A stretch of 63,081 nucleotides of DNA from a virus (IMGVR_UViG_3300011116_000165:1-63081); one strand, 5' to 3'. Shown: positions 1,985 through 33,983, counted from the first letter of the stretch. Notes: a model not told the origin generated them from the sequence alone. A program made the numbers and translations.

Positions 1985-1995
1985 GGAGCCGACAA

Positions 1996-3024: not shown

Positions 3025-3027
3025 CAC

Positions 3028-4614
3028 ATGATTGACCAAGCCTCAGTTTTTGCCGAGCGGTACAAAGGTCGTCCGCAGATTCTTCAAGCCACAGTTTTAG
3101 GGCAGGGCGGTGATCCAAACCTAGACCCCTATACGGCACTGCGTGCTCTCCAGCTAATCAAAGAATCTAACCGGATGGAGATGGCTCGTCAGGCTCAGCA
3201 GCCTACGTCGGCCCCGTCCCTTTTGTCCGATGCAATGGCCCCTGTCCAACCCCCGGCTATGCCGATGGGCGCTCCCGTAGCTCAAGGCCAACCCCCACAA
3301 GGTATGCCCCCACAAAGGCCCATGCCCCAAGGTATGCCCCAAGGCCCAGCGCCTCAAGCTCCTGTTATGCAGGCATCCGGTGGTCTGGCTGGTATGCACG
3401 TCCCTGAAGAACACTACGCAGGTGGTGGAATTCTTGCGTTTGCAGATGAAGGACTTGTAGACTCCGACGCAGAGCCTAGAAGCGCGGATGCTTCTGACTC
3501 AAGCAGGCTGGCTGAGCAGTATCGTTTGTACGGCGAAGGAAAGTTAGACGATGGCGAAGATACAGGGGATGATGGCAGTCCGGCTGACCAAGCTCGTTTT
3601 AACCGTTTGGCTACGAAGAAATTGGAAGCTCTTGCGAAGTACGACCCCAAGGAAATGAGCGCAGCAGACCAAAGACAATTTATTTCTGACTACATTACGC
3701 GGGCAAGACAATCGGCGGGCCCGGATATTTATGCCCCTGCGCAAGCCGATCAATCTGCGAGGGAAGAGGCACGTAAGTCCAATATGGGCCAGATGAGCGG
3801 TTTGGCTTTACTTCAAGCTGCCGGTGCTGTGCTTAAAGGGCGCAATTTAGCTGAGGGTGCTAGTAACGCAGCCCCTGCTTACGCTACTGCTATGAACGAA
3901 GCCATGCGTGCCGATCAAGCTGAGAAACGCTCTATTGAACAAATGAATTTTAGCCTTGCTGATGCACAACGCAAAGAACGCCAAGGGTATCACCGTGACG
4001 CTAATGCAGCGTTGGGAGAAGCGCGTAAGTTCCAAGCGGATGCAAACAAAGCTAAGTTTGATAGAGACAAAGCTTTGGCAGAAATTGCGGTCAGGGGTTC
4101 GGCTGCAAACCGACCACTGCGTTCCGGTGCTGGTGCAGGTGGCGGGACTAAACTGGCTGAGCAGTTGGCTGCGGCAGAAATTGCGTACGAAAAAGACCCA
4201 AGCAAAGAAAACTTGCAGACGGTCAAAGGGTTGCGTGCGGCTGCAAGCCAGATGCGCTCCATGACTTCTACATCCAATATCACTAGCGAGTCTGGGCCGG
4301 TTAAAGCGGGCACTAGCTTGACTACGGGTACTGCTCCAGTACAAGAAAAAGTGGATGCAGCAGTTTCTGCGGCAATGAAAACCTTTGGTAATTTAGATCC
4401 CGCATACCGTAAAGCCAAGCGGACTGGTAATACTACTGAAGCAGCACGTCTTTGGAGCGAAGAAGAAGCACGGCAACGGGCTATATTTAGAAACACTGAG
4501 GGCGTAACGCAGAATCCGCTCCCTGCTCCTATTACAAATACACGAGGAACTACGTCGGCCCCCCGCACTTCTGTTCCTCCTCCCCCTCCCGGCTTTAATT
4601 TAAATACACGTTAA
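3028..4614 (+). CDS. Putative internal virion (ejection) protein
   Basis: 528 aa; Pro/Gln linker, ASGG/YAGGG motifs, coiled-coil; operon context. Confidence 0.65.
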   Translation: MIDQASVFAERYKGRPQILQATVLGQGGDPNLDPYTALRALQLIKESNRMEMARQAQQPTSAPSLLSDAMAPVQPPAMPMGAPVAQGQPPQGMPPQRPMPQGMPQGPAPQAPVMQASGGLAGMHVPEEHYAGGGILAFADEGLVDSDAEPRSADASDSSRLAEQYRLYGEGKLDDGEDTGDDGSPADQARFNRLATKKLEALAKYDPKEMSAADQRQFISDYITRARQSAGPDIYAPAQADQSAREEARKSNMGQMSGLALLQAAGAVLKGRNLAEGASNAAPAYATAMNEAMRADQAEKRSIEQMNFSLADAQRKERQGYHRDANAALGEARKFQADANKAKFDRDKALAEIAVRGSAANRPLRSGAGAGGGTKLAEQLAAAEIAYEKDPSKENLQTVKGLRAAASQMRSMTSTSNITSESGPVKAGTSLTTGTAPVQEKVDAAVSAAMKTFGNLDPAYRKAKRTGNTTEAARLWSEEEARQRAIFRNTEGVTQNPLPAPITNTRGTTSAPRTSVPPPPPGFNLNTR

Positions 4615-4616
4615 AC

Positions 4617-14175: not shown

Positions 14176-14412
14176 TTATTTTTTCTTGAGTTCTTCGATG
14201 TATTTGGCTACTTGCGGAGCTAAGCGTGGGTGGGGGCGAGAAGCCCCTTGAAACCAGTTGTAGACCGTCATCCGACTTACGCCAAACGCTTGCGCCAACT
14301 GATTCACGCTTATCCCAGCAGGTATACATACACGACCCAAGGCTACGCCCAGAGACTTAGCATTAGCCGCTTTATTGGCTGACACTAAGCTCAGGCTATA
14401 ACCGTAGCTCAT
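14176..14412 (-). CDS. XRE-family HTH protein
   Basis: ISVNQLAQAFGVSRMTVYNWFQG helix-turn-helix. Confidence 0.85.
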   Translation of the reverse strand: MSYGYSLSLVSANKAANAKSLGVALGRVCIPAGISVNQLAQAFGVSRMTVYNWFQGASRPHPRLAPQVAKYIEELKKK

Positions 14413-21350: not shown

Positions 21351-21378
21351 AGTATAACACAGTGTTTTACTCTGTCAA
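21351..21378 (-). promoter_or_regulatory. Sigma70-type promoter of the replication operon
   Basis: TTGACA-16 nt-TATACT with extended TG. Confidence 0.8.
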
Positions 21379-21390
21379 GGGTACAGGCGT

Positions 21391-21413
21391 AAAAAAGCCA
21401 CCCGAAGGTGGCT
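21391..21413 (-). terminator. Intrinsic terminator
   Basis: Minus strand AGCCACC-TTCG-GGTGGCT followed by a T-run. Confidence 0.88.
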
Positions 21414-21440
21414 AGTACTTACCCTAACATTTGTTAGGTA

Positions 21441-21881
21441 TCACTTGAGCATACTGATCTCTCGCGTCAGATACCACTGTGCCTTGCGCAAGTCCTCCAG
21501 CTTGTTGCCTTTGTGGTCGGCGCGGGTCAGATACTTGACTACGTTGCCAAGGTTGTACCCCAGCTTCTTAGCCTCAATGAAGTCGATGGTCTCGATACCA
21601 CCTACCTTGTAATGGGCAGGGTGATTGACGTTATCGGGGGCGTTCACCGTATCGTTACTTGTGATGATTGCCAGCGTCTTCCACTTGTTCGCTGCTACCT
21701 TAGCTGACTTGCGTGGTACACGTGGGATGCCCTTCTTAGCTTTCTTGTCGTACGAAAGGGTTGCGTATACGTTCCTCAACGTAACACCCTCCAACGCCGC
21801 CGCAATATCATTTGGCTTAGCCTTGGGATGCTGCTTAACGTACGCACGGATTTTTGCTGCTGCTGTCTTAGTTTGTTTCAT
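21441..21881 (-). CDS. DUF3310 (SaV/T7 gp1.7-like) protein
   Basis: VNHPAHY..GIETIDFI..GNVVKYLTRA..EDLRKAQWYL. Confidence 0.85.
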   Translation of the reverse strand: MKQTKTAAAKIRAYVKQHPKAKPNDIAAALEGVTLRNVYATLSYDKKAKKGIPRVPRKSAKVAANKWKTLAIITSNDTVNAPDNVNHPAHYKVGGIETIDFIEAKKLGYNLGNVVKYLTRADHKGNKLEDLRKAQWYLTREISMLK

Positions 21882-22083
21882 TTTTAACTCCAGTTTGGTT
21901 AGTAACATACTCAGTAAGAATTTCTCTCATCTTGGCTTGCTTTGTATACGCAAAGTTAGTGTTGAAGTAATCCATCACCTCCTTTGTTAGACGCAGGCTC
22001 GTATTGAAAAGCGCGGGTTTCTTACCCAATCCCCGCCCTTTTCGTTTTTTCTCCGGTTTTAAAAACTCAATCCCTGTTGTCAT
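21868..22083 (-). CDS. BrnA-antitoxin-like ribbon-helix-helix protein
   Basis: KGRG..K..TSLRLTKEVMDYF..QAKMREILTEYV. Confidence 0.55.
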   Translation of the reverse strand: MTTGIEFLKPEKKRKGRGLGKKPALFNTSLRLTKEVMDYFNTNFAYTKQAKMREILTEYVTNQTGVKNETN

Positions 22084-22231
22084 TGGTTTGTTCCTTTCGT
22101 GCTTTCATAAATTGGTCGGCTATCGTAAACGCCTGCTCATGTGGAAAGTTGTCGTTCTTATTTCTAATCAACAACGCTGCCATTACAAACATAGCTGCAA
22201 GGTCTCGTAAATTCTGTTCATGCTCGGTCAT
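22067..22231 (-). CDS. Small hypothetical protein
   Basis: RDLAAMF..AFTIADQFMKAR; resembles 24352-24573. Confidence 0.65.
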   Translation of the reverse strand: MTEHEQNLRDLAAMFVMAALLIRNKNDNFPHEQAFTIADQFMKARKEQTNDNRD

Positions 22232-22478
22232 CGTAGGCTCCAAAAGGCATAGGGCAATTCTCAGGCGGTACAACTACGCACCATACTGCGCTCCACTTGC
22301 CTCGGCCTTTACCCACCTTGGGAATCCATCGGTCAATATAAGCGTCGGGCATCTTCTCTAAGCTACGCCCTGCATTGGTGTAGTTCATATTGAGGTAGTT
22401 GGATACATCTAACAATGTTAGGCCATCGTGGTACTGTTGCAATAGCATCCTAATTCGATGCTGCGGGGGTGTGTTCAT
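22218..22478 (-). CDS. Hypothetical protein, possible winged HTH
   Basis: DGLTLLDVSNYL..YIDRW..WCVV. Confidence 0.6.
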   Translation of the reverse strand: MNTPPQHRIRMLLQQYHDGLTLLDVSNYLNMNYTNAGRSLEKMPDAYIDRWIPKVGKGRGKWSAVWCVVVPPENCPMPFGAYDDRA

Positions 22479-22720
22479 GTGTTTTTCTCCTTTAGTTTGG
22501 TTTCAATGGCTTTATAAAAAACACCCCAGCCATCGTTCTGCCATTGCTCGTACGCTTGTTGTTGCTCTTCATCCGTCAACCCAACCCAAGGGCGCTCAGG
22601 CCACTGCGCTACCACATCAGCACGCACCCGCAGGGCAAAGTTATATATCTCAGGTGTCATCTGCTTGATGCCAGCCTCCGCGCCAATCCTGTCCAGCTTT
22701 GGTATTAGTCGTTCACCCAT
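22475..22720 (-). CDS. Small hypothetical protein
   Basis: Start MGERL after AGGAG; PWVGLTDEE..LKEKNT module. Confidence 0.7.
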   Translation of the reverse strand: MGERLIPKLDRIGAEAGIKQMTPEIYNFALRVRADVVAQWPERPWVGLTDEEQQQAYEQWQNDGWGVFYKAIETKLKEKNT

Positions 22721-22943
22721 TGTTTTTCTCCTTGAGAATTGACTCTGCACTGGTTGCAGCTTGCTTCGCTGCCGAATCCCAAAAATCAATCATGGCGTGG
22801 TGTTTGATACGCCATGCAAACACGCGCAGTTCAGGTGTTAACTCAACCCGCGCTTCCTTTGCAATTGCTTCTAGCTTTAGCTTCTCTTCTTCCATAGTTT
22901 TGTATACGTCGTAGCGTTTGTATAAATGTTCTTTGCTATCCAT
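22713..22943 (-). CDS. Small hypothetical protein
   Basis: Start MDSKE after AGGAG; ends LKEKNNG. Confidence 0.65.
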   Translation of the reverse strand: MDSKEHLYKRYDVYKTMEEEKLKLEAIAKEARVELTPELRVFAWRIKHHAMIDFWDSAAKQAATSAESILKEKNNG

Positions 22944-23208
22944 TATTCTTCTCCTTGTCTGCTTTCTCCTTGTCTTTGCGCTCCAGTGCAATCATGTAAT
23001 CCAGTGAATCTTGAATCGACTTTTGGTTTCTTACTGACAGATTTTTCAAATCTTCAAACGTGATATGTGGTTTTTTCTGGGTGTCGCATAACTCTGCCAT
23101 GTACGCAAAGTAATCCCTACGCGCTACCGTTTCTATATACCATATTAGCGTTTGTAGCTCGTTTGTATTTGGCACACCAAGTAGTTCAATCATTTCAGTG
23201 TTAGTCAT
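22936..23208 (-). CDS. Small hypothetical protein
   Basis: Coupled ORF; ends KEKNNG. Confidence 0.65.
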   Translation of the reverse strand: MTNTEMIELLGVPNTNELQTLIWYIETVARRDYFAYMAELCDTQKKPHITFEDLKNLSVRNQKSIQDSLDYMIALERKDKEKADKEKNNG

Positions 23209-23471
23209 ACGTTCTTATCCTTAAATTTAGTCAGCAGGTCACGGGCAAAACCAATAGGCGTGGGTCTTTTGAAGGGTTCCCTTGACCAGTATGTTTTAGT
23301 AATCTCCTCGTCCGTCAGGTCTACCCAAGGGCGCTGTGCTGCTTTCTTTCCGTCATAGAAACCGCTTTGGTATGCAATCGTCAACGCATCGTCGTGGTCT
23401 TGGTATACCTGCGTATCGTCATCGTCCAGCTTGTCCCGCGCTGCTGCGCGTTTGCTTTCGTAGCCTGTCAT
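23205..23471 (-). CDS. Small hypothetical protein
   Basis: ATGA coupling; PWVDLTDEE module. Confidence 0.7.
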   Translation of the reverse strand: MTGYESKRAAARDKLDDDDTQVYQDHDDALTIAYQSGFYDGKKAAQRPWVDLTDEEITKTYWSREPFKRPTPIGFARDLLTKFKDKNV

Positions 23472-23680
23472 GCTCTACCTCTTGTGTAAACGATCTGCCT
23501 AAAATTTTCAATCCAAAAAGCAGCGGGTTTATTTTGCAGCAGGGGGTTGTCCTCTACTGGGCGCAGTTCCTCTATCGACTTCATAATGGCTTCACGCTCA
23601 TGCGCTGCTACCAATTCGGCAAAGCGTTCCAGCCAATAGTCGCGTTGACCCGCTTGCTTTGCTAGTTCAATGTAGTTCAT
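23468..23680 (-). CDS. Small hypothetical protein
   Basis: ATGA coupling; FAELVAAHEREA module. Confidence 0.7.
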   Translation of the reverse strand: MNYIELAKQAGQRDYWLERFAELVAAHEREAIMKSIEELRPVEDNPLLQNKPAAFWIENFRQIVYTRGRA

Positions 23681-23871
23681 GCTTCACCTCTTGCTCTGAT
23701 TTTTTCAACAATGAAATCGGCTATTTCATCTGGGGGTACAAACAAATCCTCAACTACTTTGGCGCACTCCTCACGCTCATGCGCGGCTACCAATGCGGCA
23801 AAGTGTTCTATGTCACCATGCAAGTTCAGCCCATTGGTTTCAATCAGTTTAATAATTTCATCTTGTGTCAT
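23677..23871 (-). CDS. Small hypothetical protein
   Basis: ATGA coupling; FAALVAAHEREECA..IRARG. Confidence 0.7.
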   Translation of the reverse strand: MTQDEIIKLIETNGLNLHGDIEHFAALVAAHEREECAKVVEDLFVPPDEIADFIVEKIRARGEA

Positions 23872-24191
23872 ACCTTGCCCCTTGCTCTGTCCATAACTCT
23901 TTCCATCGCGTCTGAGTAGCTCATGCCTAACGCTTTGTTTATAAGCGCCAATGACTCATCAATGATTTCATCATGCACTCCCGCTTCTACTTCCCTGAGA
24001 ACAGTTAGCGTCATCTTTGCATCCTCTAACGCTTCAATGTCTGCGCTGTTAACTTTCCACATCAACTCAATGTCTTCTTCAATTGTGTCAACGTAGGGCT
24101 TAATTGGCTTCAAAGGTTTTATCCGATCAAACATCTTCTTGCCTAGTTCGTAAAACTCTTTGTCTTTGCCTGTGTTGTTATCTATAGTCAT
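23868..24191 (-). CDS. Hypothetical protein
   Basis: Likely start MTIDNN overlapping the upstream TGA. Confidence 0.65.
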   Translation of the reverse strand: MTIDNNTGKDKEFYELGKKMFDRIKPLKPIKPYVDTIEEDIELMWKVNSADIEALEDAKMTLTVLREVEAGVHDEIIDESLALINKALGMSYSDAMERVMDRARGKV

Positions 24192-24355
24192 TTCAGCACC
24201 ACCGCAACAAGAATTGACGCCCCCACTACAAAGATCACCCACACGATCAAGCCCTTGACCTGCTGCACAAACTGCGCGTAGTCGCTAGGCTCGGGCTCGT
24301 CGTACTCCCAATCCTTTTGCTTGCGCTCCATGTATTGTTTGTCTGCTTCGTTCAT
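24188..24355 (-). CDS. 55-aa protein with C-terminal TM helix (not in the ORF track)
   Basis: MNEADKQYME..GLIVWVIFVVGASILVAVVLK; ATGA overlaps at both ends; SD AGGAG. Confidence 0.7.
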   Translation of the reverse strand: MNEADKQYMERKQKDWEYDEPEPSDYAQFVQQVKGLIVWVIFVVGASILVAVVLK

Positions 24356-24573
24356 TTGGCACGCTCCTTTAGCATTGCGTCTGCAAATTCATAGGACAAT
24401 TTAGCTACACGCTCAAAACTACCTGTTTCCACAATCTGGTAAATTTCTTGCATTGCAAGCCCAGCAAAGTGGTCGCGCATGGTCATGTCTCGGGCGTAGC
24501 CGCCTTCCTTGACTTGCCAGTCAGCGTACTGTTTGGCGTATGCGCCTTCCATAACTATCGGTTGGTCTTTCAT
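24352..24573 (-). CDS. Small phage protein
   Basis: MTMRDHFAGLAMQ..SYEFADAMLKER motif. Confidence 0.75.
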   Translation of the reverse strand: MKDQPIVMEGAYAKQYADWQVKEGGYARDMTMRDHFAGLAMQEIYQIVETGSFERVAKLSYEFADAMLKERAK

Positions 24574-24869
24574 TTGATTTTTCCTTCAAGCATTTCGTTT
24601 ACTAACTCGTGGCACAGTTCCTTGAACCTTGGCGTGTATGTCGTCTTGGTGTTTTCGTACCGCGCAATTTCCTCACCGTCTTTGAAGTACACCAGCACTG
24701 CCTTATCGCTCACATAACCGTTGTAGGTTTGGAAATCAGGTATGTAATGGTCAAACGATTGCAGTATTAACTTGCGGTTTTTGTTTATCTCGCTTCTGTC
24801 TAGGTTTCCACCAACTATTTCTCTGTCGATGGCTCGGCCCATAGCTTCATGCAGTTCTTCGCGGGTCAT
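24570..24869 (-). CDS. Hypothetical protein
   Basis: Start MTREEL after AGGAG. Confidence 0.65.
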   Translation of the reverse strand: MTREELHEAMGRAIDREIVGGNLDRSEINKNRKLILQSFDHYIPDFQTYNGYVSDKAVLVYFKDGEEIARYENTKTTYTPRFKELCHELVNEMLEGKIK

Positions 24870-24880
24870 TGCTTGTACTC

Positions 24881-25036
24881 CTAGTGAAGCCAAAGATAAA
24901 AACCATGCAGGATGCCAATCGGAAATAGGATGGCACCAGCCACCAAGAATCCCCACAAGCCCTGTGCAAAGCAAGTGAATACGTGCGTAAGCCAAGCGGC
25001 AAGGCAAGCAAATCCAAATAGTGCTGACCAGTTCAT
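24881..25036 (-). CDS. 51-aa hydrophobic membrane protein (not in the ORF track)
   Basis: MNWSALFGFACLAAWLTHVFTCFAQGLWGFLVAGAILFPIGILHGFYLWLH; SD GGAG. Confidence 0.7.
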   Translation of the reverse strand: MNWSALFGFACLAAWLTHVFTCFAQGLWGFLVAGAILFPIGILHGFYLWLH

Positions 25037-25242
25037 TATTTTTTCTCCTCTGATTTAAAGCTGTCCATACGTGAGTTAAGGCGTAGGATGCGAGCCTTGT
25101 TGTAGTTGACTATGCTCTGCGCATACTCCACTGCGGTCTCGGCTTGTAGCTGTTCGATGTGCGCGTCGGCTAGCTCGGCGGCAATCATTTCCAAGGGCGT
25201 AGGGTTACGCATTTGGGTCTTTATAAACTCAATGAATTTCAT
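25036..25242 (-). CDS. Small coiled-coil hypothetical protein
   Basis: SD AAGGAG adjacent to a palindrome copy. Confidence 0.7.
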   Translation of the reverse strand: MKFIEFIKTQMRNPTPLEMIAAELADAHIEQLQAETAVEYAQSIVNYNKARILRLNSRMDSFKSEEKK

Positions 25243-25264
25243 GTGCTTCTCCTTCTAACAATTG

Positions 25265-26101
25265 TTAAGTCTCGTCTACCAATAACACAAACACCTCGTC
25301 ACTAACACGGCAGCCCATATCAGTGATGTACTGTTCGTTCTCTACTAACTTCAACATGCCCAACTTCATTCGCATGACTTGAGGGAACGTATTATCGTCA
25401 TACAAACTAATCTCGTCTCCAATTTTTACTAAGTATTTACCCGCGTCTTTAATTACCAATGCTGTCTTAGCCGCAGCGAATTCACTCTGCACTCGCTCAA
25501 TGGTCAGCATCTCTACCTCCATCTCTTGCTTCTTCTCTAGGTGCATAAGAAGTTTCTGTCGCTCCATAGTCGGCATACCAGCTTGCACGTGCTGCATGAA
25601 TAGGTGGAAGCCCTCACCCAAGATAAACTTATGCGCCGCGTCGAATACGGCGTGCTCATGCTTAGTCTTCTCTCGCTCCTTATTCCATACGCCCCTAGTC
25701 ACAACCCGCTCGGCTTCGTCCCTAGCTTTCTTTAGTCGCTCGGTCTGATTCATCTTGCCGAACATCTTCTTCGCCATGACCACGGCCTTGTCTGCATCCA
25801 TAGTCGTGTACGAACCCTTCCTTGACCTCGCGCCAGCAATGCGGTCGTTATGTATTTCTACTGCTGTACCGCTACGTGTGTGGGTAGTGCCAAAACTGCC
25901 TAGCCTCTCACCATCTAGGGATACAACAAAACTTATGGCAACTGCACCGCCCATACTGCTCGACTGTGCTACCTCAAACTTCCACAGTGGGTACAGTGTG
26001 GCGAGTCGTTGGACTACTGGGGCCAGCGCACTGTGCACTTTCTCCACATTGCCGTACTTATCCTTGTCTACGATTACGTTGGGTAATGTAAAAATACTCA
26101 T
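25265..26101 (-). CDS. Hypothetical protein
   Basis: 278 aa; SD AGGAG overlaps a palindrome copy. Confidence 0.8.
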   Translation of the reverse strand: MSIFTLPNVIVDKDKYGNVEKVHSALAPVVQRLATLYPLWKFEVAQSSSMGGAVAISFVVSLDGERLGSFGTTHTRSGTAVEIHNDRIAGARSRKGSYTTMDADKAVVMAKKMFGKMNQTERLKKARDEAERVVTRGVWNKEREKTKHEHAVFDAAHKFILGEGFHLFMQHVQAGMPTMERQKLLMHLEKKQEMEVEMLTIERVQSEFAAAKTALVIKDAGKYLVKIGDEISLYDDNTFPQVMRMKLGMLKLVENEQYITDMGCRVSDEVFVLLVDET

Positions 26102-26127
26102 TGACTACTCCTAACAATTGTTACTAA

Positions 26128-26976
26128 TCACCACTCGAACTTGCCCAAGATTGCATCAACCTTAGACTTCAACTTCTCACGCGCTAACGGGCTATCCTTC
26201 ACCTCTTCGATGCTCTCACCAATTAACGCTAGCTCTACTTGCCTACGTGCTTCCTCCAGCTTGGGGTCGTTGGTCACGTTCAGCTTAGTCAGCAACTCAC
26301 ACAACTCCAATGGGTTGCTCAGTAGTGAGTCGTGATACCGCTTCTTATCCTCGCCGGTATCCTCCAGCTTCTTAGACGTATCGACTAACAACTTGTGCAG
26401 TCGCTCCCACGGCATACGCATCGCCTCGGCTAGCTTGCTCTCGCTCTGCTGCTCAAACTCCAGACGCATCTCATCTAAGTCCTGCGTGGGTATGTCCAAG
26501 CGAAAGTCTCCCGCCTCGGGCACAGGCTTGACCGAACGACGGAACCCAAACTTCTGCTTCACCTGCTCAAGGTCGGGGTAGTCCTCTGCCTTGTACAGCC
26601 CTTGCAACGCAGTCGGTGCTTCGGATACTAGGCGCGGATACTCATCAAAAAAGTTATCGCACAGGGACTGGAACGTACGCTCGTACCCATTCATGGTCTG
26701 CTTGTACTCCATGAACAACGCAGTCGGCAACATGCGCTCACCCTTGTCAGCCCACGGTAATGTGTGCTGGTTGTGATACAGGCGAACCCGCGCCGCGAAC
26801 TTCTCAATGTCTGCTCGTAGGCTCGTACCCGCAAACAGATTCTTCTTAGTCTGCGAGGCTCCATGCACTGCCCCTGCGTCCGTATTCACTTTGTTGGTGA
26901 TCTCCCGATCAATCTTTGATGCGGGCCATACGCTGATGTTTAACTCCACTAACACTGCTGATGAACTGATACTCAT
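26128..26976 (-). CDS. Hypothetical protein (possibly DUF3150-like)
   Basis: 282 aa; AVLVELNISVW..TLPW..YP..F pattern; family recalled, unverified. Confidence 0.55.
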   Translation of the reverse strand: MSISSSAVLVELNISVWPASKIDREITNKVNTDAGAVHGASQTKKNLFAGTSLRADIEKFAARVRLYHNQHTLPWADKGERMLPTALFMEYKQTMNGYERTFQSLCDNFFDEYPRLVSEAPTALQGLYKAEDYPDLEQVKQKFGFRRSVKPVPEAGDFRLDIPTQDLDEMRLEFEQQSESKLAEAMRMPWERLHKLLVDTSKKLEDTGEDKKRYHDSLLSNPLELCELLTKLNVTNDPKLEEARRQVELALIGESIEEVKDSPLAREKLKSKVDAILGKFEW

Positions 26977-26979
26977 GAT

Positions 26980-27225
26980 TTACTCCTTGGTTGGTTTGCC
27001 TGCTAACTTAGCCATTCGATATAGGCTCTCACTGATGACCTTCATACCTATCTGCCGTTCGTTGTCGTACACATGATGTGTGTAGTCCACCCCACCTTCT
27101 GCTCGTTGCTCTTTCGGAATCCACTTGTGCTCATACACCTCGGCCTTCTCTAATATGTCCATTAATGCTATGGCATCCTTATTGGGGAGCACATACGACT
27201 GATACCCTAATTCAACTACTACCAT
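26980..27225 (-). CDS. Hypothetical protein
   Basis: Start MVVVEL after AGGAG overlapping a palindrome copy. Confidence 0.7.
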   Translation of the reverse strand: MVVVELGYQSYVLPNKDAIALMDILEKAEVYEHKWIPKEQRAEGGVDYTHHVYDNERQIGMKVISESLYRMAKLAGKPTKE

Positions 27226-27259
27226 TTCTGAACTCCTAACATTTGTTAGATACCACCGA

Positions 27260-28456
27260 TTAATCTTTGACGTGAATCGTCTTGCCGTTTGGAGCAATGT
27301 CATCGTTACCCCCTACGATTGCCCACAGTACAGGCGCAGTCCACTCACTACCCCAGTCGTTACCCACGTACCCATCGGTTAGCATAATGACGCACTCGGG
27401 CTCGATACGCTTCTCTTTCAGATACGCAGATACGCATGACGGACTCGTACCACCACCGCCTCGTGGCTTCGTGGAACTAACAATGTCGCCCACCATGCTC
27501 TCGGTGTACTCCTCGTGTGCTGCCACATGGCTGTCCCAATAGATTAGGTCTACTTGGCTAGGATTAACTTCCTCAGCAATACCCTTGACCTCACCAAGGA
27601 ACCCCGACAACTCGGCCTGACCGATCGAACCGGACGTGTCAATGGCAATCACTAGGTGACCTACTTTCTCACCGATCATGCTTGGCATATACGTGCCTGT
27701 GGATAGGAACCTACGGTTAACCCTGCGCCATGACGACGTATCCTTTGCGCGGCATGTGGCTTTCACAAACTCACGCAACGCTTCGCGCCAATCAATCTTG
27801 GGCTCAAGTAAGTCCAGCACATCACGGTCTAGCCCACCTGCACCAGTTCCCGCAACTTTCTGCTGCGCCATGACTCCCTGACGAATCGCTTGGTCAATGT
27901 CACGCTCAAGCTCACGCTTAGCCTCGGCACTCAACTCCTGCGCACCATCCCAATCATGCTCATCGAACCCACCGCCACCACCACCGCCGTTCTTCTCTTG
28001 CTCTTCCTTCAGTAGGTCGAACACTTGCTTGGCATTGAGGCCACGATACTTCTCGTCAACCAAGCCCATCGGCAAGCCCTTCATCTTGCCATCCTTGTAG
28101 CGTGGCATGGCAATGACCGACTCGGTAGGATCAAGGTCTTTGAGCTTAAGGTTAATCACGTAGTCACAAGACTGATTGGCTAGGCTGTGATCTTCATCAT
28201 GCAGCTTCTTCCACGTAGTCAGGTGACGAAATGCCTTGTGCAGATTCTCATGTAGCACCACGAAATTCAACTCGGGGTCTTTCAACTCCTTGACGAACTC
28301 GCGTCCATAAGTCTCGTCGCGTCCATTGGTACACGCCGTGGGGATATCGTCCGACACTCGTGTCTTGCCCACCATCATGATGCCCGACCAAAGCGCAAAC
28401 TTCGGGTTACGCATCAAGCTAATCTTGGCCTTCTGTACTCTGCGTTCTTCTAACAT
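27260..28456 (-). CDS. DUF2201-type metallopeptidase-vWA protein
   Basis: PTACTNG; HENLH (HExxH); vWA MIDAS DTSGS, GGGT and LTDG. Confidence 0.88.
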   Translation of the reverse strand: MLEERRVQKAKISLMRNPKFALWSGIMMVGKTRVSDDIPTACTNGRDETYGREFVKELKDPELNFVVLHENLHKAFRHLTTWKKLHDEDHSLANQSCDYVINLKLKDLDPTESVIAMPRYKDGKMKGLPMGLVDEKYRGLNAKQVFDLLKEEQEKNGGGGGGGFDEHDWDGAQELSAEAKRELERDIDQAIRQGVMAQQKVAGTGAGGLDRDVLDLLEPKIDWREALREFVKATCRAKDTSSWRRVNRRFLSTGTYMPSMIGEKVGHLVIAIDTSGSIGQAELSGFLGEVKGIAEEVNPSQVDLIYWDSHVAAHEEYTESMVGDIVSSTKPRGGGGTSPSCVSAYLKEKRIEPECVIMLTDGYVGNDWGSEWTAPVLWAIVGGNDDIAPNGKTIHVKD

Positions 28457-28474
28457 TTGTTAGGTCTCCTTGTA

Positions 28475-28972
28475 TTAAAGTTTTGCTCTCGTATAAACTG
28501 GGTCGGCAAACAAAGCATTCCCTCGCAGCCCCTTCTTCCACCGGCTGCCAAGCAGCCCATACTTCCATCCTTTGTGTCTAGCCCAATCAGCAAGGCTCAT
28601 AGTCAACCCCTCATGTGTAATGAATACGTTAGTAACTCTATTGTTGGCTTGTTCCGTTCGGTTAGCCCACCTAACATTGTTAGGTTCGTAGTTGCCGTTG
28701 TTGTCGATGCGGTCAAGCGTTGCCCCTTTGGGTCGTTCACCAATCGCGGATACAAAAACGGCATAGTCTTCCGCCCACTCTGCACACATGGTTATGCCCC
28801 TACCACCGTAGCGGTGATAGTTTGGGGTGTTTGGGTTGAAGCATCGGTCTTTGATTCCCCTCCATAGTTTGTACATCGGACTGCTTTTGCCTTGCCTAGC
28901 ATCCACTGCGCCACCGTGCTTTGTGCGCTTACGGTTTGCGTCGGCTACGCCTTGGTTGTATTTACGTTCCAT
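28475..28972 (-). CDS. Free-standing HNH homing endonuclease
   Basis: WRGIKDRC..YGGRGI..LDRIDNNGNYEPNNVRWA. Confidence 0.88.
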   Translation of the reverse strand: MERKYNQGVADANRKRTKHGGAVDARQGKSSPMYKLWRGIKDRCFNPNTPNYHRYGGRGITMCAEWAEDYAVFVSAIGERPKGATLDRIDNNGNYEPNNVRWANRTEQANNRVTNVFITHEGLTMSLADWARHKGWKYGLLGSRWKKGLRGNALFADPVYTRAKL

Positions 28973-29039
28973 GATTTACTCCGGTTATAAGTGGGACTCA
29001 CCACCATGTAATGAGTATACCACACATCAAGACTAAGTC

Positions 29040-30104
29040 TTATAATAAATCTTGGTTTAACGCGACCCACTCAGAGAATGCCTTGCAGCTAAACGCAATG
29101 CTCTGCTTGCTCTGCGTCTTGCTCAAGTTGATAGCGAACACCGCTTGCCACTCGGCATCGAACCGCTTGAGGTACTCCATGAATGGTGTGATCGTCACCT
29201 TGTCGATACGTGCGATAGCACCGAACACCACGATGGCACACGCCCCTGAACTCGTAGGCACAGGCGTATTCTTTGGGTCACGGATAGTCGCCTCCCACGT
29301 AGGTAGCTGGTCGGCAAACTCTATGTATGCTTGCATATCTCTAGCACCACTCTCGCCAATAGCACCGGTCAACGCAGCGATCACGGCATCGGGGTCATTG
29401 TCCTTGCGGGTCTTAACAATGTTAGATGCAGTCTCCAGCGAACGTGGGGATACGAACGCATTCTGAGTCTTGCGCGGGTTAAAGATATAGGGGTTGTCGC
29501 CCTGCCCACCGTCGGTGTAGCTTGCCAATACTTGCGGGAACCGATTCACCCATGCAATCACCTCGGGCGATACATCCTTCTCGATGGCCCAATTAATCCA
29601 TTCCTCGGAAGTCGGCTTAGCCACCGTGATCTCAACGATACGGTTGCGGGTGTGGGCCTTGAGCGTGTCTCCCACTCCGTCAGTAGACAGATTACCAGTC
29701 AGGAACACCACCGTCCGATTGTCCAGCGATACATCACCCAAGCGTGGATTCTTCTTCTCTAGGCACGGGTGCAGCATATTCTTCACAGGGTCAGCGCCCT
29801 TGCTGAACTCGTCGAACATCATCACCAGTGGCTTGCCATTGTGAATCTTGAACCGTGCGTTGGGATAATACTTTGTGGTACGTGTCTCGTGGTCGATCAC
29901 AGGCATTGCGACATCACCTAAATCCATATTGGGTACGTCGATATACGCATGGTCGTATCCAAGGCGCTCGGCGATCTGCTCCAGCATCGAACTCTTGCCA
30001 ATGCCCGGCTCTCCACGTAGCATGAACCTCGTCTCGGGGTTGGTCACGATTAGGTTGACCGCTTGCTTGAGGGTAACGGTCTTGCCAAAGTTAATTTCAG
30101 CCAT
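29040..30104 (-). CDS. MoxR-like AAA+ ATPase
   Basis: GEPGIGKS, MMFDE, TGN and SPRS motifs. Confidence 0.9.
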   Translation of the reverse strand: MAEINFGKTVTLKQAVNLIVTNPETRFMLRGEPGIGKSSMLEQIAERLGYDHAYIDVPNMDLGDVAMPVIDHETRTTKYYPNARFKIHNGKPLVMMFDEFSKGADPVKNMLHPCLEKKNPRLGDVSLDNRTVVFLTGNLSTDGVGDTLKAHTRNRIVEITVAKPTSEEWINWAIEKDVSPEVIAWVNRFPQVLASYTDGGQGDNPYIFNPRKTQNAFVSPRSLETASNIVKTRKDNDPDAVIAALTGAIGESGARDMQAYIEFADQLPTWEATIRDPKNTPVPTSSGACAIVVFGAIARIDKVTITPFMEYLKRFDAEWQAVFAINLSKTQSKQSIAFSCKAFSEWVALNQDLL

Positions 30105-30221
30105 GATAAAGTCCTTCTGATTACGCTAATAAATCTAACAAATGTTAGGTGGGGATTACTCTGCATTTATTTAGAGCCTACACCTACTTGACTACGAACA
30201 GAATTATCCGTGCCAATATAC

Positions 30222-30250
30222 ATTATACCACAAAGTAATAGATATGTCAA
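30222..30250 (-). promoter_or_regulatory. Consensus sigma70 early promoter
   Basis: TTGACA-17 nt-TATAAT with extended TG. Confidence 0.9.
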
Positions 30251-30271
30251 GTATTTCGACACACCATTTGC

Positions 30272-31345
30272 CTACACAAACTTGAACCAATCCGCGTAGT
30301 TTGTACTCGCTACTTTGCCCACAGGCATCCTCACCTGCTCTAACACCTCCTCTTTGAATACCCGCAGCACGAACTCGTCGGCCAGCTTCTCCGCACTTGA
30401 CCGGCTTATCCGAAAGAACTCAGCCTTCGTTGCTATGTGCGTCTGCTGCGCAACTAACAATGTTAGGGCCGCACGATAGAAATTCTCGCCCTTCACCTCG
30501 TCCGGCTGGTCGTTGCGCATCAGGGCCAGCACCTCCAGCTTGTCGGCTTTCTCCCTCGCGTTCTGCATGTCGCGCTCCTTCTCGGCTCCCCATGTTCTCA
30601 GGTGCGTGAACAATGCCTTGCGTGGCTCAGTTGTATCCACCGTAGGAGTACCACCAAACACGTGCACGGTCTGCCCGAACATGTTCACCACTGTTTCCAT
30701 GTGTACTACCACTTCTGTCTTAGCCACAAACGGTGTCTCGGCAGTCGGCTTGTTCCACCGCTGGTTGGCATACCTCACATCAAAGTCGATGTGCTCGGTC
30801 AGGATTGAAGTCATGCCCTTGTAGTACTTGAGAAACTCAGTGTACGGCGCTCTAACAATGTTAGCTTTCGCTTTGCTCAGTCTCCACTCCAGCGCACCCT
30901 CGGCCTGCACCACCGTCCACACTGGTATGAGTCCACTCTTGTCGCGCTTTATTCTGAACTCGTTCGCACCCAGCACGTACTTGTCCTTGCCATCCCTTAG
31001 CTGCACCACCGTCTTGCCCTTGCTTGTGTACACGTGGATATCGCTCAGCAACTCCACCACAAACTCGCGCACATACGCCGTGTTGTATCTGCCCACACTA
31101 ATCTGTACCTCATCGTTGGGGTGATACGTCACCACCGTCCCATTCTCACCGCTGTAGCAGCAGCATTCATACAAAACTACGCCGTCGGCAATCCTCTCGC
31201 GGATGTACAGGTGCTTATCGCTTCGTTTGGCTAGCGGCCTCGTCTTATTCTTGTCGCCTCGGATAGGCGTGGTCATGTCGTGTCGCTTTTTAGCTTCCTC
31301 ATACGTGCGTATGTACGGTACTCTATGGGTTGAATTGAATGTCAT
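30272..31345 (-). CDS. Early hypothetical protein
   Basis: 357 aa; SD GGAG. Confidence 0.8.
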   Translation of the reverse strand: MTFNSTHRVPYIRTYEEAKKRHDMTTPIRGDKNKTRPLAKRSDKHLYIRERIADGVVLYECCCYSGENGTVVTYHPNDEVQISVGRYNTAYVREFVVELLSDIHVYTSKGKTVVQLRDGKDKYVLGANEFRIKRDKSGLIPVWTVVQAEGALEWRLSKAKANIVRAPYTEFLKYYKGMTSILTEHIDFDVRYANQRWNKPTAETPFVAKTEVVVHMETVVNMFGQTVHVFGGTPTVDTTEPRKALFTHLRTWGAEKERDMQNAREKADKLEVLALMRNDQPDEVKGENFYRAALTLLVAQQTHIATKAEFFRISRSSAEKLADEFVLRVFKEEVLEQVRMPVGKVASTNYADWFKFV

Positions 31346-31349
31346 GTCG

Positions 31350-31523
31350 TTACTCCATTGTTTCGGCAGCAGTGCGCAGCCGGTATGCTTTGATACGCTT
31401 GTTGCTCATGTACTTCATCATGTACCGCTCTTTCGCAGCCTCGGCATTCTTGGCCTCGATTACCTCGGTGTCCCACACACCGTAGCGGTTGCTCCATCCT
31501 GTTACGCAGTATCTAGCTAACAT
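31350..31523 (-). CDS. 57-aa early protein (not in the ORF track)
   Basis: AAAGGAACCTAACAA-ATG, same leader as 32203; MLARYCVTGW..AAETME. Confidence 0.7.
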   Translation of the reverse strand: MLARYCVTGWSNRYGVWDTEVIEAKNAEAAKERYMMKYMSNKRIKAYRLRTAAETME

Positions 31524-31776
31524 TTGTTAGGTTCCTTTCGTTTATTTCGTTTGTATGGTTCACCATCATGGCTACCAGCTTATCGGTTAACTTAGCCATG
31601 TGTATCAGCACCGACTGGTCATCACTTTGCGCAACTATCGCCCACACCCTGCCTCGTTGCTTGGCTATATCTGTGAAGTCGTACCACTTGCGCTCGACCA
31701 CGATAAAGTTACCGCTAAACCCGCGCAGTAGCATGTACTTCTTCTTGCGCCGTGGCTTGGTCACCCTCTGCTCCAT
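31513..31776 (-). CDS. Early hypothetical protein
   Basis: Tiles the operon. Confidence 0.6.
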   Translation of the reverse strand: MEQRVTKPRRKKKYMLLRGFSGNFIVVERKWYDFTDIAKQRGRVWAIVAQSDDQSVLIHMAKLTDKLVAMMVNHTNEINERNLTNVS

Positions 31777-31964
31777 AGCTTCTCGTACACCTGCGCCTCG
31801 TCACGTAGCGGGTGCAGCGTGGCATCGTCAAGGCTCATCAGTCTGCGCATCTCCACGATTGTCGCGTGGGCCATGTCAGGCTCACCCTTGGCTAGTTTGT
31901 CGTCGGCATCGTCCAACAATGTTAGAAATCTTTGGTATTCACTCGGTCGGATACTTGGTCTCAT
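31761..31964 (-). CDS. Early hypothetical protein
   Basis: ATGA coupling; SD AAGGAG. Confidence 0.65.
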   Translation of the reverse strand: MRPSIRPSEYQRFLTLLDDADDKLAKGEPDMAHATIVEMRRLMSLDDATLHPLRDEAQVYEKLWSRG

Positions 31965-32203
31965 GCTCGCTGCTCCTTCGGATTAGTTTGTTTGAGCGTT
32001 GTGTATGCGCTCGTATTGGTTACAAACTGATAGGCTCCCTTGGTGTACTCTTGGATAATGCACCACGATGTGCGCTCTTGCCTCGCGGCTTCCTCCCCGC
32101 AGAACAAGCACACCGACTTGATGCGAGCACGTTCGGGCGGCTCGATATCGTCACCGCATACTCTGCACGTGGTATTTATGTACCCCAAATTGATTTCTAA
32201 CAT
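31961..32203 (-). CDS. Small Zn-finger protein
   Basis: CRVC..CLFC; ATG lies inside a palindrome copy. Confidence 0.7.
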   Translation of the reverse strand: MLEINLGYINTTCRVCGDDIEPPERARIKSVCLFCGEEAARQERTSWCIIQEYTKGAYQFVTNTSAYTTLKQTNPKEQRA

Positions 32204-32220
32204 TTGTTAGGTTCCTTTGC

Positions 32221-32650
32221 TATGTTACGTTTTGCAGGGCAGAAAAAGGATTTCCCCTACCCAGTCTATATTATACCACAAAATTATATATAAGTCAAGT
32301 TTTTAGCTGAAGTGAAAGTTACGTAACAATAGGCAGAAATGGGCTATGTTACGTGTTACAAAACGGGAATGTAACAACCTAAGTCGTTGATTCTTAACTT
32401 GAAAAAGGGGAAAATCAGGTTAAAGTTAAAAAGTAATAAAGTTATATGTATGTATATGAAGCCTGCCAAAAAATGGGTGTGGTACGAATTGCGCTTGCTG
32501 CCTTCTTCAACCTCTGCGCAAGTCGTCCATATATGCCCAAAAACATTGTAACTTATAACATAGCTTATAAATCAACGACTTACGAGAAACGTAACGTAAC
32601 AAAGCCCTAAAAAGCGTAACATTGGGCTAATGTTATATAACATTTGTTAG
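32221..32650. other. Putative replication origin
   Basis: AT-rich non-coding; about 10 GTTAC/GTAAC repeats; inverted IHF-consensus sites at 32380 and 32570. Confidence 0.5.
32270..32298 (-). promoter_or_regulatory. Sigma70 early promoter
   Basis: TTGACT-17 nt-TATAAT with extended TG. Confidence 0.88.
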
Positions 32651-32656
32651 TTTAAT

Positions 32657-32759
32657 CCTACCGCCGCACAGAGAACTGGTGCAGCCCAAACATTCGCCGA
32701 TGCCTCTTTTGTAACAAAGCCTAGCCCTACTGCCGCACAGGGAACTGGTGCAGCCCAAA
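32657..32759. repeat. 34-bp direct repeat pair
   Basis: CCTACYGCCGCACAGRGAACTGGTGCAGCCCAAA at 32657 and 32726. Confidence 0.9.
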
Positions 32760-32809
32760 AAATTTGGGCGAAAAAAAACCCAACAAATAACATTGTTAGG
32801 TGTAGACGC

Positions 32810-32833
32810 AAAAAAGCCCGCATAAAGCGGGCT
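32810..32833 (-). terminator. Intrinsic terminator
   Basis: Minus strand AGCCCGC-TTTAT-GCGGGCT followed by a T-run. Confidence 0.8.
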
Positions 32834-32852
32834 CAGGGTAAGAGCGTAGGGA

Positions 32853-33032
32853 TTAGGAAAAACGCAAGCCAGTGCTTGGGTCAATCAAACCGTCAATGCC
32901 TAGCCTAGTAACGGCTTCACCAACTTCACCGATAGATTTAATAAGTTCGGGCAGGGTTATCAATCCCGAGGCATACATTTGGATTTGCGTCATGGTGTGG
33001 TTATGTAGGTGTTGAATTTGATTTTGCGTCAT
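32853..33032 (-). CDS. 59-aa early protein (not in the ORF track)
   Basis: GGAG SD; MTQNQIQHLH..DPSTGLRFS; followed by a terminator. Confidence 0.6.
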   Translation of the reverse strand: MTQNQIQHLHNHTMTQIQMYASGLITLPELIKSIGEVGEAVTRLGIDGLIDPSTGLRFS

Positions 33033-33101
33033 GGTCTTTTCTCCGAGGGTTGAAATCTAACAATTGTTAGGGATGGGGGAGGGTTTCCCCTCCCCTCCCG
33101 A

Positions 33102-33599
33102 TTAGCCTAGCGTGCTCACGTCTCCGCCCATGCCCTCGTAAACGTCCATCAAGTTAGCTTTGAACATCGAAGCGTTACAGTCTTGGCCCTCTTCCTCTGA
33201 TTTCAGAATACGGTTTATCATGGTTTTCAGTTCCGCCATTGTCTTACTGTCTACGTCCGTCCCGCCGGTAACGCGACCCTTCGGTACGTATCCAGAGGCC
33301 TCTTTCACACGTTGCCAATAAACGTCAATGGTAGGCTTACCGAAACCGGCCTCAGTCATGGCGTCCACAAAAGCGGCGCGCTCTGCCTTGATGCCCTTTT
33401 TGTCTTTGCCCACTAGCTCATACCATGCGGTAACGTTAGTACCGCTAGTGTCGCTGACGTTGTACGTCATGCAAAGGGCATCAGCATACCCTTGGATTAC
33501 CGCGCCCGTACCCTTAGCGGCGGTTACTAACTTGCGCCGCGCCGCAGCGACAATGCCGGTGTCAATAGCGGGGGCGGTGGTGGTGATTACGTTCGTCAT
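33102..33599 (-). CDS. First early-arm gene, hypothetical
   Basis: 165 aa; SD GAGG; downstream hairpin at 33074-33095. Confidence 0.8.
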   Translation of the reverse strand: MTNVITTTAPAIDTGIVAAARRKLVTAAKGTGAVIQGYADALCMTYNVSDTSGTNVTAWYELVGKDKKGIKAERAAFVDAMTEAGFGKPTIDVYWQRVKEASGYVPKGRVTGGTDVDSKTMAELKTMINRILKSEEEGQDCNASMFKANLMDVYEGMGGDVSTLG

Positions 33600-33669
33600 A
33601 CTCTAACCTCTTCTAATAAACCCTAGTGCTCCTAGGAGAGATACCGCATTGTGTGTCGGTATGCTATAT

Positions 33670-33697
33670 ATTATACATATCGTGGTACATAATGCAA
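33670..33697 (-). promoter_or_regulatory. Leftward early promoter
   Basis: TTGCAT-16 nt-TATAAT. Confidence 0.7.
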
Positions 33698-33983
33698 GCC
33701 CATAAATAAAATAATTAAATGGGGTCTATGGGCTAACAATTGTTAGATTTCGCCGACACCGATACCCCACCCACCCAAATTAGAGCAAGGGACTCCTGCC
33801 GCCAACTACACACTGTTCCGCTCACCCGATTAGCAAAATTAAACTTTCCCCGCCAAACGGCGGCTCAATAAACTTCCCCTAACTTACCCCCCTCCCCCTT
33901 ATCTTTTCTGTACCACAGTGATATCAAGTCCTTCCCAGAAACACCCCCCGGGTCTAAAAATCTAGGCCAGTCCAAAAAAATTT

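Follow-up and report, generated by a model that had tools for sequence, protein, structure and literature searches.

The early arm of an uncultured phage, represented by the IMG/VR record IMGVR_UViG_3300011116_000165 (63,081 bp, completeness rating 100%; this whole stretch of DNA is referred to below as the window), carries 18 copies of a short palindrome in which the arms CTAACA and TGTTAG are separated by one or two nucleotides. These sites are themselves under selection, are confined to the arm, evolve in a concerted manner among related phages and co-occur with the first gene of the arm, encoding a protein named here p165 (33102–33599, minus strand). In the explanation that we favour, and to which we give about an even chance, the palindromes are the sites of one symmetric phage protein, likely a dimer of p165 bound to duplex DNA, which would limit early transcription.

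In the window, exact matches to the 14-bp form CTAACAWWTGTTAG were found at eight positions (21424, 27236, 28450, 30135, 31517, 32197, 33057 and 33733; expectation from 100 dinucleotide shuffles, 0.01) and exact matches to the 13-bp form CTAACAWTGTTAG at four (22409, 28671, 30454 and 30852; shuffle expectation, 0.00). A scan permitting at most one mismatch over the 12 arm positions of CTAACA/TGTTAG, with spacers of 0–7 allowed, returned 18 sites, all of which lie in 21424–33746 and have a spacer of 1 or 2, and none in the other ~50 kb of the window. The confinement to the early arm claimed in an earlier, sequence-only reading of this DNA was thereby borne out. That reading had counted 17 copies; its 11 copies of 14 bp were all recovered, but the 13-bp copies number seven (22409, 28671, 29413, 30454, 30852, 31913 and 32787), not six. 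Of the 25 CTAACA half-sites, 19 are inside the 12.3-kb site-bearing stretch.

Seven sites (at ≤1 mismatch) are intragenic within the 25 early coding sequences (CDSs; 10,779 nt), while synonymous-codon shuffling of these CDSs gave 0.42 intragenic sites on average and four at most; none of 2000 shuffles reached seven. Together with codon choice at the site in the ATPase gene (see below), this confirms that the palindrome is non-random and that the site itself is under selection, as had been suggested. Six of the seven 13-bp copies are within CDSs, in agreement with the earlier claim that this form is mostly intragenic, and the seventh (32787) is situated among terminators. Three sites hold a start codon, three overlap or abut a Shine-Dalgarno sequence (SD) and two are in 5' leaders. 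The individual placements described for the 14-bp copies also held: the sites at 28450, 31517 and 32197 contain the ATG of open reading frames (ORFs) 27260–28456, 31350–31523 and 31961–32203, respectively, all of which start with ML, and the 3' arm of the site overlaps the SD at 27236 and 26111 and abuts it at 25255.

Confirmed uncultured relatives of this phage numbered 269 with DUF2201 and 598 with TerL as the anchor, and 160 of them were read; the DUF2201-anchored sample consisted of 80 IMG/VR loci and the TerL-anchored sample of 34 loci with at least 3 kb of the arm. A near-identity DNA search of a cultured-phage collection gave no match, and even the nearest relatives in culture are remote (the DNA polymerase matches those of Rhizobium phage RHph_TM3_14A and Pseudomonas KPP25-like phages at 37%). 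A listing of the literature on KPP25 gave nothing relevant, and the literature searched for the motif yielded unrelated primer matches and nothing specific to it. The 13/14-bp motif is present in 3–22 copies in 52 of the 80 DUF2201-anchored loci, so that it is conserved, and a 15-bp form occurs in five more. Restriction of the motif to a single segment of 8–12 kb was seen again in each of five further complete genomes, where this segment holds 17/18 (G001), 18/19 (G002), 16/17 (G003), 9/9 (G004) and 5/5 (G005) of the copies.

More distant loci carry other palindromes, one uniform kind per genome. These are CTGACA-WW-TGTCAG, TTAACA-NN-TGTTAA, GTAAC-N4-GTTAC and CTAACT-type sites, and further AAATAATGTC-N-GACATTATTT, GGACAAAGTGTCA-N3-TGACACTTTGTCC, GTCTACATATGTAGAC and CCCTTTACT-AA-GTAAAGGG; the half-sites among these lineages include AATGTC, GTGTCA (13-bp arms), TCTACA and CTCACA. 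The palindromes of L072 (4014–13437; 29 bp, built of 13-bp arms around a 3-nt centre that varies), L057 (4412–11611; 21 bp) and L180 (arm 861–8449; CCTCACA-W-TGTGAGG) occupy the same places as those of the window. No repeated palindrome was found in L022, L052, L053, L067 and L068, and in L053 a relic half-site remains at the DUF2201 start. Judged from these sequence comparisons, the motif is a recognition site that is conserved, and co-evolves, within a large clade of uncultured phages.

Some other repeats were seen in the related loci. An oriented GCCGAG motif in the site-less L022 was rejected, as it is an Ala-Glu codon pair (frame 0 in 10/14), and CAATGAAC was noted in the site-less L053. 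In a non-coding region of L058 (5076–5640) a unit of ~19 bp, TGCCTATTTTTTAAGCAAC, is present seven times in two clusters, and a tandem repeat of 12 bp, GCAACGACAGGA, is part of the coding sequence at the start of a gene in L067 (5292–5365) and L068.

Spacing is mostly uniform within a genome. Among 81 loci (the window included), 27 were assigned to the 13-bp class, 27 to the 14-bp class (including five of the TTAACA group), five to the 15-bp class, six were mixed and 16 were of other kinds. For the ATPase peptide ASNIV, 24 rows (20 of the 13-bp class, three mixed and one mostly 14-bp) have the codons TCT AAC ATT GTT A, which yield a 13-bp site, and 11 rows of the 14- or 15-bp class have other codons; this indicates that the nucleotide site and its spacing are both under selection. 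In a concatenated tree of the ATPase, DUF2201 and p282 the 13-bp class is the most widespread, and the tree implies six or more origins of the other classes. Four orthologous intergenic sites of the sister pairs L043/L044 and L074/L029 differ by one centre base, and the ortholog of the window's site 28450 measures 13 bp in L043, against 14 bp in L044.

The 14-bp sites of the window are mostly at gene boundaries, and all six 13-bp sites scored under a stricter pattern (31913 fell outside it) are deep in genes. A similar arrangement is seen in L035, where 10 of 11 13-bp sites are deep in genes and all five 14-bp sites are at boundaries. Since intragenic sites cannot take a 1-bp indel, this largely explains the split between 14-bp intergenic and 13-bp intragenic copies, and the window is probably a lineage caught in, or tolerant of, a spacing transition. 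The two spacing classes that had been proposed for it exist, but an evolutionary transition is a better reading of them than a division into two kinds of different function. On every gene tree the spacing class changes 5–10 times, so that no gene stands out as its determinant, and no gene cluster specific to a spacing class was found in the loci.

The presence of the sites follows that of p165. In an iterative profile search, p165 was retrieved at E ≤1e-35 in 27 rows (26 loci and the window), and all 27 carry xTAAC-type palindromes, the TTAACA, GTAAC and CTAACT lineages included. Within the 34 TerL-anchored loci, 24 have p165 together with at least four TAAC-type sites and one (L180) has a divergent p165 and 10 copies of its CCTCACA-W-TGTGAGG palindrome, i.e. 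a repeated palindrome is present in 25/25 p165-positive loci. Nine loci lack p165; seven of these are without palindromes, one has a single site and one (L118) has six. The arms without p165 are otherwise homologous, as exemplified by L110 (82% identity in the ATPase, 75% in DUF2201 and 77% in p282). L118, L120 and L066 have a common alternative first gene and have kept 6, 1 and 5 sites, respectively, and L022, L135 and L182 have another common alternative first gene and no sites, which is the pattern expected from loss of the reader followed by decay of its sites. The first genes of L022, L066 and L057 are of similar size to p165 and unrelated to it. The gene itself is flanked by sites: the nearest one is at most 161 nt upstream of the p165 start in 46/53 loci and at most 124 nt past its stop in 47/53.

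A signature helix of p165, W-x-R-V-K/R, is kept in 8/8 aligned representatives with CTAACA and altered in 4/4 representatives with changed half-sites (SDVL, SRAK, SRVL and RQIK). The first gene of L072 encodes WSRVCK at the corresponding position, and the p165 profile had no significant match to the first genes of L057 and L072 (E 0.5 and 0.095, respectively). The AlphaFold model of p165 (mean pLDDT 79.7) is all-helical, with a terminal helical hairpin. Its homodimer prediction score was 0.44 (best control, 0.00), a value reached by 20 of 30 solved homodimers and one of 23 single chains, and the dimer runs had a contact agreement of at least 74% and a partner pLDDT of at least 77; p165 is accordingly a predicted homodimer. 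A weak HTH_37 match was obtained for one of 22 family members (E 0.11). From the gene's distribution and the covariation of its helix, p165 may read the palindrome, and it is a better candidate than the XRE, ribbon-helix-helix (RHH) and 22218 proteins named as possible binders in the sequence-only reading.

Several observations weigh against p165 as the reader, or against the scheme built on it. These are: (i) L118 and L066, which are without p165 yet have six and five good sites; (ii) the fact that the helix covariation involves the most divergent lineages, in which change is expected anyway; (iii) the searches for a recognizable fold, which gave only a weak HMG_box match in Pfam (2/22 members, E 0.003), nothing in a PDB profile search, no Foldseek match against PDB at E ≤0.001 and a best VIA-wide Z of 6.4, within the helical background; (iv) the phylogenies, in which the TerL tree offered only three well-supported independent pairs (2.5 in the same direction and 0 in the opposite one, sign-test p 0.25) and the p165 tree required five spacing changes for 35 labelled rows and was no cleaner than those of other genes (5–10); (v) the lack of overlap between any of the 18 window sites and the hexamers of its four promoters; (vi) the position of six window sites on or directly beside a start codon or SD, which is equally compatible with mRNA control; and (vii) the exceptions to the account of frozen intragenic sites, which is not universal, as the three spacings occur together at gene boundaries in L149 and three of the sites outside genes in L142 are of 13 bp.

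The molecule on which the sites are read was approached through unique sites pooled across the relatives (544–636, depending on definition). The core TAAC/GTTA is nearly invariant, the outermost pair varies and the centre is A/T-rich. Among 177 single-mismatch variants, four were of the G·U type versus seven of the mirror type, and no complementarity above the shuffled expectation was found in the flanks past the first flanking pair. The centre was T in 73 and A in 69 deep intragenic 13-bp sites, A in 46 and T in 31 intergenic 13-bp sites, and TT in 39, AA in 22 and AT in 18 intergenic 14-bp sites; no consistent strand bias of the centre was found away from start codons. The missing G·U tolerance, flank covariation and strand bias argue for one symmetric, sequence-specific reader, as had been supposed, rather than for a generic hairpin, and the site probably acts at the level of duplex DNA rather than RNA.

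The strongest of the rivals, though in our estimate an unlikely one, places the sites in mRNA, where a phage protein, be it p165 or a different one, would bind the CUAAC-loop-GUUAG hairpin and repress translation, act in the manner of lambda N on boxB, or direct cleavage. The positions at start codons (three), SDs (three) and 5' leaders (two) in the window speak for it, as does the start codon lying within the site in 39/267 of the 13-bp and 48/179 of the 14-bp sites of the relatives. The element of each lineage can form a stem with a loop of 3–5 nt, the 13-bp arms of L072 included, loop size as a specificity feature would fit the uniform spacing, and p165 as the first gene, followed by a site and terminators, resembles the lambda N/nut arrangement. 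However, G·U variants are not preferred over mirror A·C variants, flanks do not covary, the centre has no strand bias away from start codons and the hairpins are very weak (16 of the 18 in the window fold at -3.9 kcal/mol or weaker). Location also weighs against a role in the transcript: the first window site is upstream of the candidate first promoter (recognized by eye), and in about half of the relatives the nearest upstream site is 96–161 nt ahead of the start of p165. Two sites of L061 lie between the -35 and -10 hexamers, having arisen from a single change in a promoter spacer conserved among relatives, and would be outside the transcript of that promoter; in L049 two sites overlap a -35, and these two loci were the only ones among the inspected relatives with such promoter-hexamer overlap. 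Sites are depleted deep within genes (55%, 30% and 22% of sites in the three spacing classes versus 78% of the span), but the codon-selected copies that do occur there would not be needed for translational control or antitermination.

It is improbable that the reader is another phage protein, i.e. the RHH protein (21868–22083), the XRE protein (14176–14412) or the zinc-ribbon protein (31961–32203), with p165 merely belonging to the same exchangeable type of arm. RHH tetramers can set half-site spacing, and the RHH-like protein p71 (21868–22083, minus strand; 71 aa; BrnA_antitoxin in 3/17 family members, best E 3e-7), with its basic, AT-hook-like N-terminal arm KRKGRGLGKKP, is encoded at the end of the site-bearing region. 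However, p71 does not track the palindrome: it is near-identical in L043 (13-bp) and L055 (14-bp), and likewise in L061 (15-bp), L042 (14-bp) and the site-less L053, and its strand residues vary among phages sharing CTAAC. The XRE and zinc-ribbon proteins are conserved in all six complete genomes, but the recognition helix of the former is near-invariant in genomes with CTAACA, GTGTCA and TTAACA. The latter (minus strand; 80 aa, CxxC-x15-CxxC, TraR/DksA-like by eye, without a Pfam match, homologues metagenomic only) was found in 46/80 related loci, and was rejected because it is also present in site-less ones (L022, L067 and L110). The wHTH-like candidate at 22218 has counterparts in just 3/80 related loci, p357 is absent from G002, which has sites, and the profiles of p282, p278 and p357 gave no informative match in PDB. 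The absence of any gene cluster specific to a spacing class counts against all such candidates.

We consider it quite improbable that the palindromes serve chiefly as signals for recombination or as cassette boundaries, promoting the shuffling of small, variable early genes with no regulatory reader. The early small ORFs of the window are highly mosaic (many have homologues in 0–5 of 80 loci), the sites are at gene boundaries more often than expected, and recombination between comparable repeats has been inferred for Cluster O mycobacteriophages (PMC4351075, section 8). Against this stand the codon-selected sites within conserved core genes, the disappearance of sites without p165 from arms that stay mosaic, and the strict uniformity of spacing, which short-homology recombination does not need; in addition, the scanned ORFs (35 with Pfam, from the early and replication arm plus four of the late arm, and 80 with PHROGs) yielded no recombinase or HUH/Y1 enzyme. 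The hairpin and recombination alternatives of the sequence-only reading are thus both weakened, and both are kept as rivals to recognition of DNA by p165. A host DNA-binding factor, with motif differences reflecting different hosts, is very improbable: the phage binders are candidates and the sites resemble, by eye, -35-like hexamers (xTxACA) on both strands, but spacing differs between sister phages, sites are missing altogether from close relatives whose arms are homologous, and site presence tracks a phage gene. Hardly credible is pairing of RNA with RNA (self-complementary transcripts, or a small or antisense RNA matching all copies), which would maintain complementarity and hence uniform spacing without a protein, and for which the non-coding region 32210–32850 carries two copies, since AA/AA centres would mismatch, the duplexes would be AU-rich and only 13–14 bp long, no known RNA family was found and the link with p165 would be left unexplained.

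If p165 is the reader, the host RNA polymerase would transcribe its gene first. As p165 accumulates, it would bind the 18 sites around its own gene, in 5' leaders, at gene starts and within genes, and would throttle or silence the 12-kb early region, its own gene included, as a self-limiting roadblock of a Cro-like or stoperator-like kind. Shut-off of early genes by a protein coating this region, one of the roles suggested in the sequence-only reading, is inferred here as well. The replication module, which is site-free, starts right past the last site and a terminator. Half-site sequence and spacing would co-evolve with the reader, the lengths of 13, 14 and 15 bp having been switched several times, with intergenic sites following a switch through 1-bp indels and intragenic sites unable to do so.

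A bolder proposal, which we put forward tentatively and think more apt to fail than to hold, is that p165 represents an undescribed family of immediate-early dimers with a new helical fold, silencing the arm through 10–25 sites in a phage without signs of lysogeny and forming an exchangeable reader-site module. Within this proposal the module would have been lost several times, with decay of the sites afterwards, its half-site sequence and spacing (13, 14 or 15 bp) would have been altered repeatedly, and the frame-locked intragenic sites would be dated relics of such alterations. If it is true, the relatives offer a natural series for studying the evolution of DNA-recognition geometry. Binding by p165 would mean a new DNA- (or RNA-) binding family, stoperator-like control in an apparently lytic phage and a tractable reader-site pair, with tunable spacing, for synthetic regulation. 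If p165 does not bind, a strongly selected signal without a reader remains, which is a directly testable problem.

The site-bearing stretch is part of a genome layout in which the minus strand carries the early and replication genes, between 33.6 and 11.3 kb, and the plus strand carries, from 34.1 kb onwards, those for terminase, portal and structural proteins. The record has a direct terminal repeat of 127 bp (1–127 and 62955–63081); a repeat of equal length is present in G002, which makes an assembler overlap likely, so that the physical ends and the first-injected end are not fixed by the sequence. The PHROGs and Pfam scans detected neither an integrase nor a CI-type repressor in the ORFs that they covered, and N4-type hairpin promoters were dropped from consideration because the same scans also showed no phage RNA polymerase and no sigma factor. 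Rfam gave no matches at the gathering threshold, and no tRNAs were found.

Following the direction of early transcription (minus strand), the first site, an exact 14-bp copy (33733–33746), is ~40 bp ahead of the -35 hexamer of TTGCAT-16 nt-TATAAT (33670–33697), a candidate for the first early promoter, which was recognized by eye only and is absent from the promoter scan. Past p165, an exact 14-bp site (33057–33070) lies 32 nt after its stop and 24 nt ahead of the next ATG. Two one-mismatch sites follow, one of 13 bp between or inside terminator hairpins (32787–32799) and one of 14 bp in a conserved non-coding region (32637–32650). The promoter scan placed a sigma-70-like promoter at 32270–32298 (minus strand, 11/12, with TG), ~55 nt before the exact 14-bp site that contains the ATG of the zinc-ribbon gene (32197–32210). 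Next come a one-mismatch 13-bp site within ORF 31761–31964 (31913–31925), the exact 14-bp site with the ATG of 31350–31523 (31517–31530) and two exact 13-bp sites within 30272–31345 (30852–30864 and 30454–30466).

A second sigma-70-like promoter from the scan (30222–30250, minus strand, 12/12, with TG) is followed by an exact 14-bp site in the 5' leader of the ATPase gene (30135–30148). The MoxR-like AAA ATPase (29040–30104, minus strand) is paired with a DUF2201 metallopeptidase/VWA protein (27260–28456, minus strand); this pair is the conserved core of the early arm, and its best cultured matches are in N4-like phages (~31% identity). The ATPase gene holds a one-mismatch 13-bp site made by codon choice in the ASNIV codons (29413–29425), and the exact 14-bp site at 28450–28463 contains the ATG of the DUF2201 gene. 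Between these two genes is an HNH endonuclease gene (28475–28972, minus strand), which was found in only 4/80 related loci and is therefore probably a mobile insertion; it contains an exact 13-bp site (28671–28683). The remaining sites are three of 14 bp at SDs, namely an exact one at 27236–27249 and one-mismatch copies at 26111–26124 (SD of 25265–26101) and 25255–25268 (SD of 25036–25242), an exact 13-bp site within 22218–22478 (22409–22421), and an exact 14-bp site past the stop of 21441–21908 (21424–21437). The last of these directly precedes a terminator-like hairpin with a T run (21396–21413, minus strand), which closes the region, and the scan's sigma-70-like promoter at 21351–21378 (minus strand, 11/12) opens the site-free replication module. 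This order of last site, terminator and promoter defines the site-bearing stretch as a bounded early region.

Two further features of the window were recorded. Between the first operon and the 32298 promoter is a conserved non-coding block (32210–32850, minus orientation) with three terminator-like hairpins, an AT-rich stretch, two copies of the 25-nt element CACCAGTTCYCTGTGCGGCGGTAGG and, inside 32228–32716, eight GTAACA/TGTTAC half-site-like motifs. Its layout recurs in L046, L015, L018 and L061, with clusters at 10121–10560 in G001 and 13122–13448 in G002; it has no Rfam match and could be an iteron-bearing replication origin or a regulatory hub. The second feature is a 2152-aa protein (4617–11075, plus strand), whose C-terminal third matches PHROG DarB-like antirestriction/large virion families and whose gene adjoins that of a putative DNA-ejection protein.

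Several known systems resemble the arrangement in part. In Cluster A mycobacteriophages, stoperators are the sites of an immunity repressor of the L5 gp71 type (PMC9283540). They have no symmetry and follow the direction of transcription, a monomer reads them, the phages are temperate, and the bound protein blocks elongation. They share with the present sites the many copies of 13–14 bp along transcription units, often in short intergenic gaps, and the co-evolution of site and reader. In contrast, the sites described here are palindromic, with a centre free of strand bias away from start codons, and are restricted to the early arm; neither an integrase nor a CI-like repressor was found among the scanned ORFs (PHROGs, Pfam), although no search was made with the sequence of gp71 itself, a two-domain helix-turn-helix protein. 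In view of the symmetric, unoriented sites, a reader predicted to be dimeric and a phage that appears lytic, the sites are not filed among stoperators.

Lambda Cro is an early dimer with a helix-turn-helix (HTH) fold that turns down early transcription from six palindromic operators overlapping promoters. The role proposed for p165 is similar in that a dimeric early product would have palindromic sites flanking its own gene, but Cro operators overlap promoters, while 0/18 sites are on promoter hexamers in the window, and p165 gave, beside the weak HTH_37 match in one family member, no HTH match in the PDB profile and fold searches. KorB of plasmid RK2 with its OB operators, and ParB-parS, use a palindrome of 13–16 bp in about a dozen copies, some of them intragenic, from which a loaded dimer silences at a distance; their setting is a plasmid or chromosome, unlike the phage early arm considered here, and no ParB/Srx-domain protein was detected by Pfam (E ≤0.01, 35 ORFs) or by PHROGs (80 ORFs). 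The start-associated sequences of Cluster K mycobacteriophages are an asymmetric 13-bp element that recurs where the translation of certain genes begins, and they are described as always start-proximal, whereas many of the present copies are deep in genes or far from starts. REP/RAYT-type elements would include a Y1/HUH transposase gene with its cognate palindromes on either side, and no such family was found in the PHROGs and Pfam scans. RNA hairpin operators (MS2 coat, lambda N-boxB) keep their pairing and are stable, in contrast to the weak hairpins without G·U retention observed here.

The closest known case is the 17-bp palindrome TGTTCGG-NNN-CCGAACA of Cluster O mycobacteriophages, for which a dimeric binder was proposed and the function was left unexplained (PMC4351075, section 8). 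Both sets of sites combine invariant inverted arms with a short centre rich in A and T, number in the tens, are found in intergenic, 5'-end and intragenic positions and have no clear orientation, and the Cluster O repeats are concentrated in one leftward operon, as here. The two differ in sequence, host and phage type, and phage Corndog has 34 copies genome-wide versus 18, in the early arm only, in the window. A candidate reader, spacing switches and site-less relatives are not reported in section 8 of PMC4351075. Multi-copy phage palindromes have thus been seen before and left unexplained in Cluster O, while the relatives of the present phage, with changed half-sites, three spacing classes switched repeatedly and arms that are site-less, constitute natural experiments which point to one gene.

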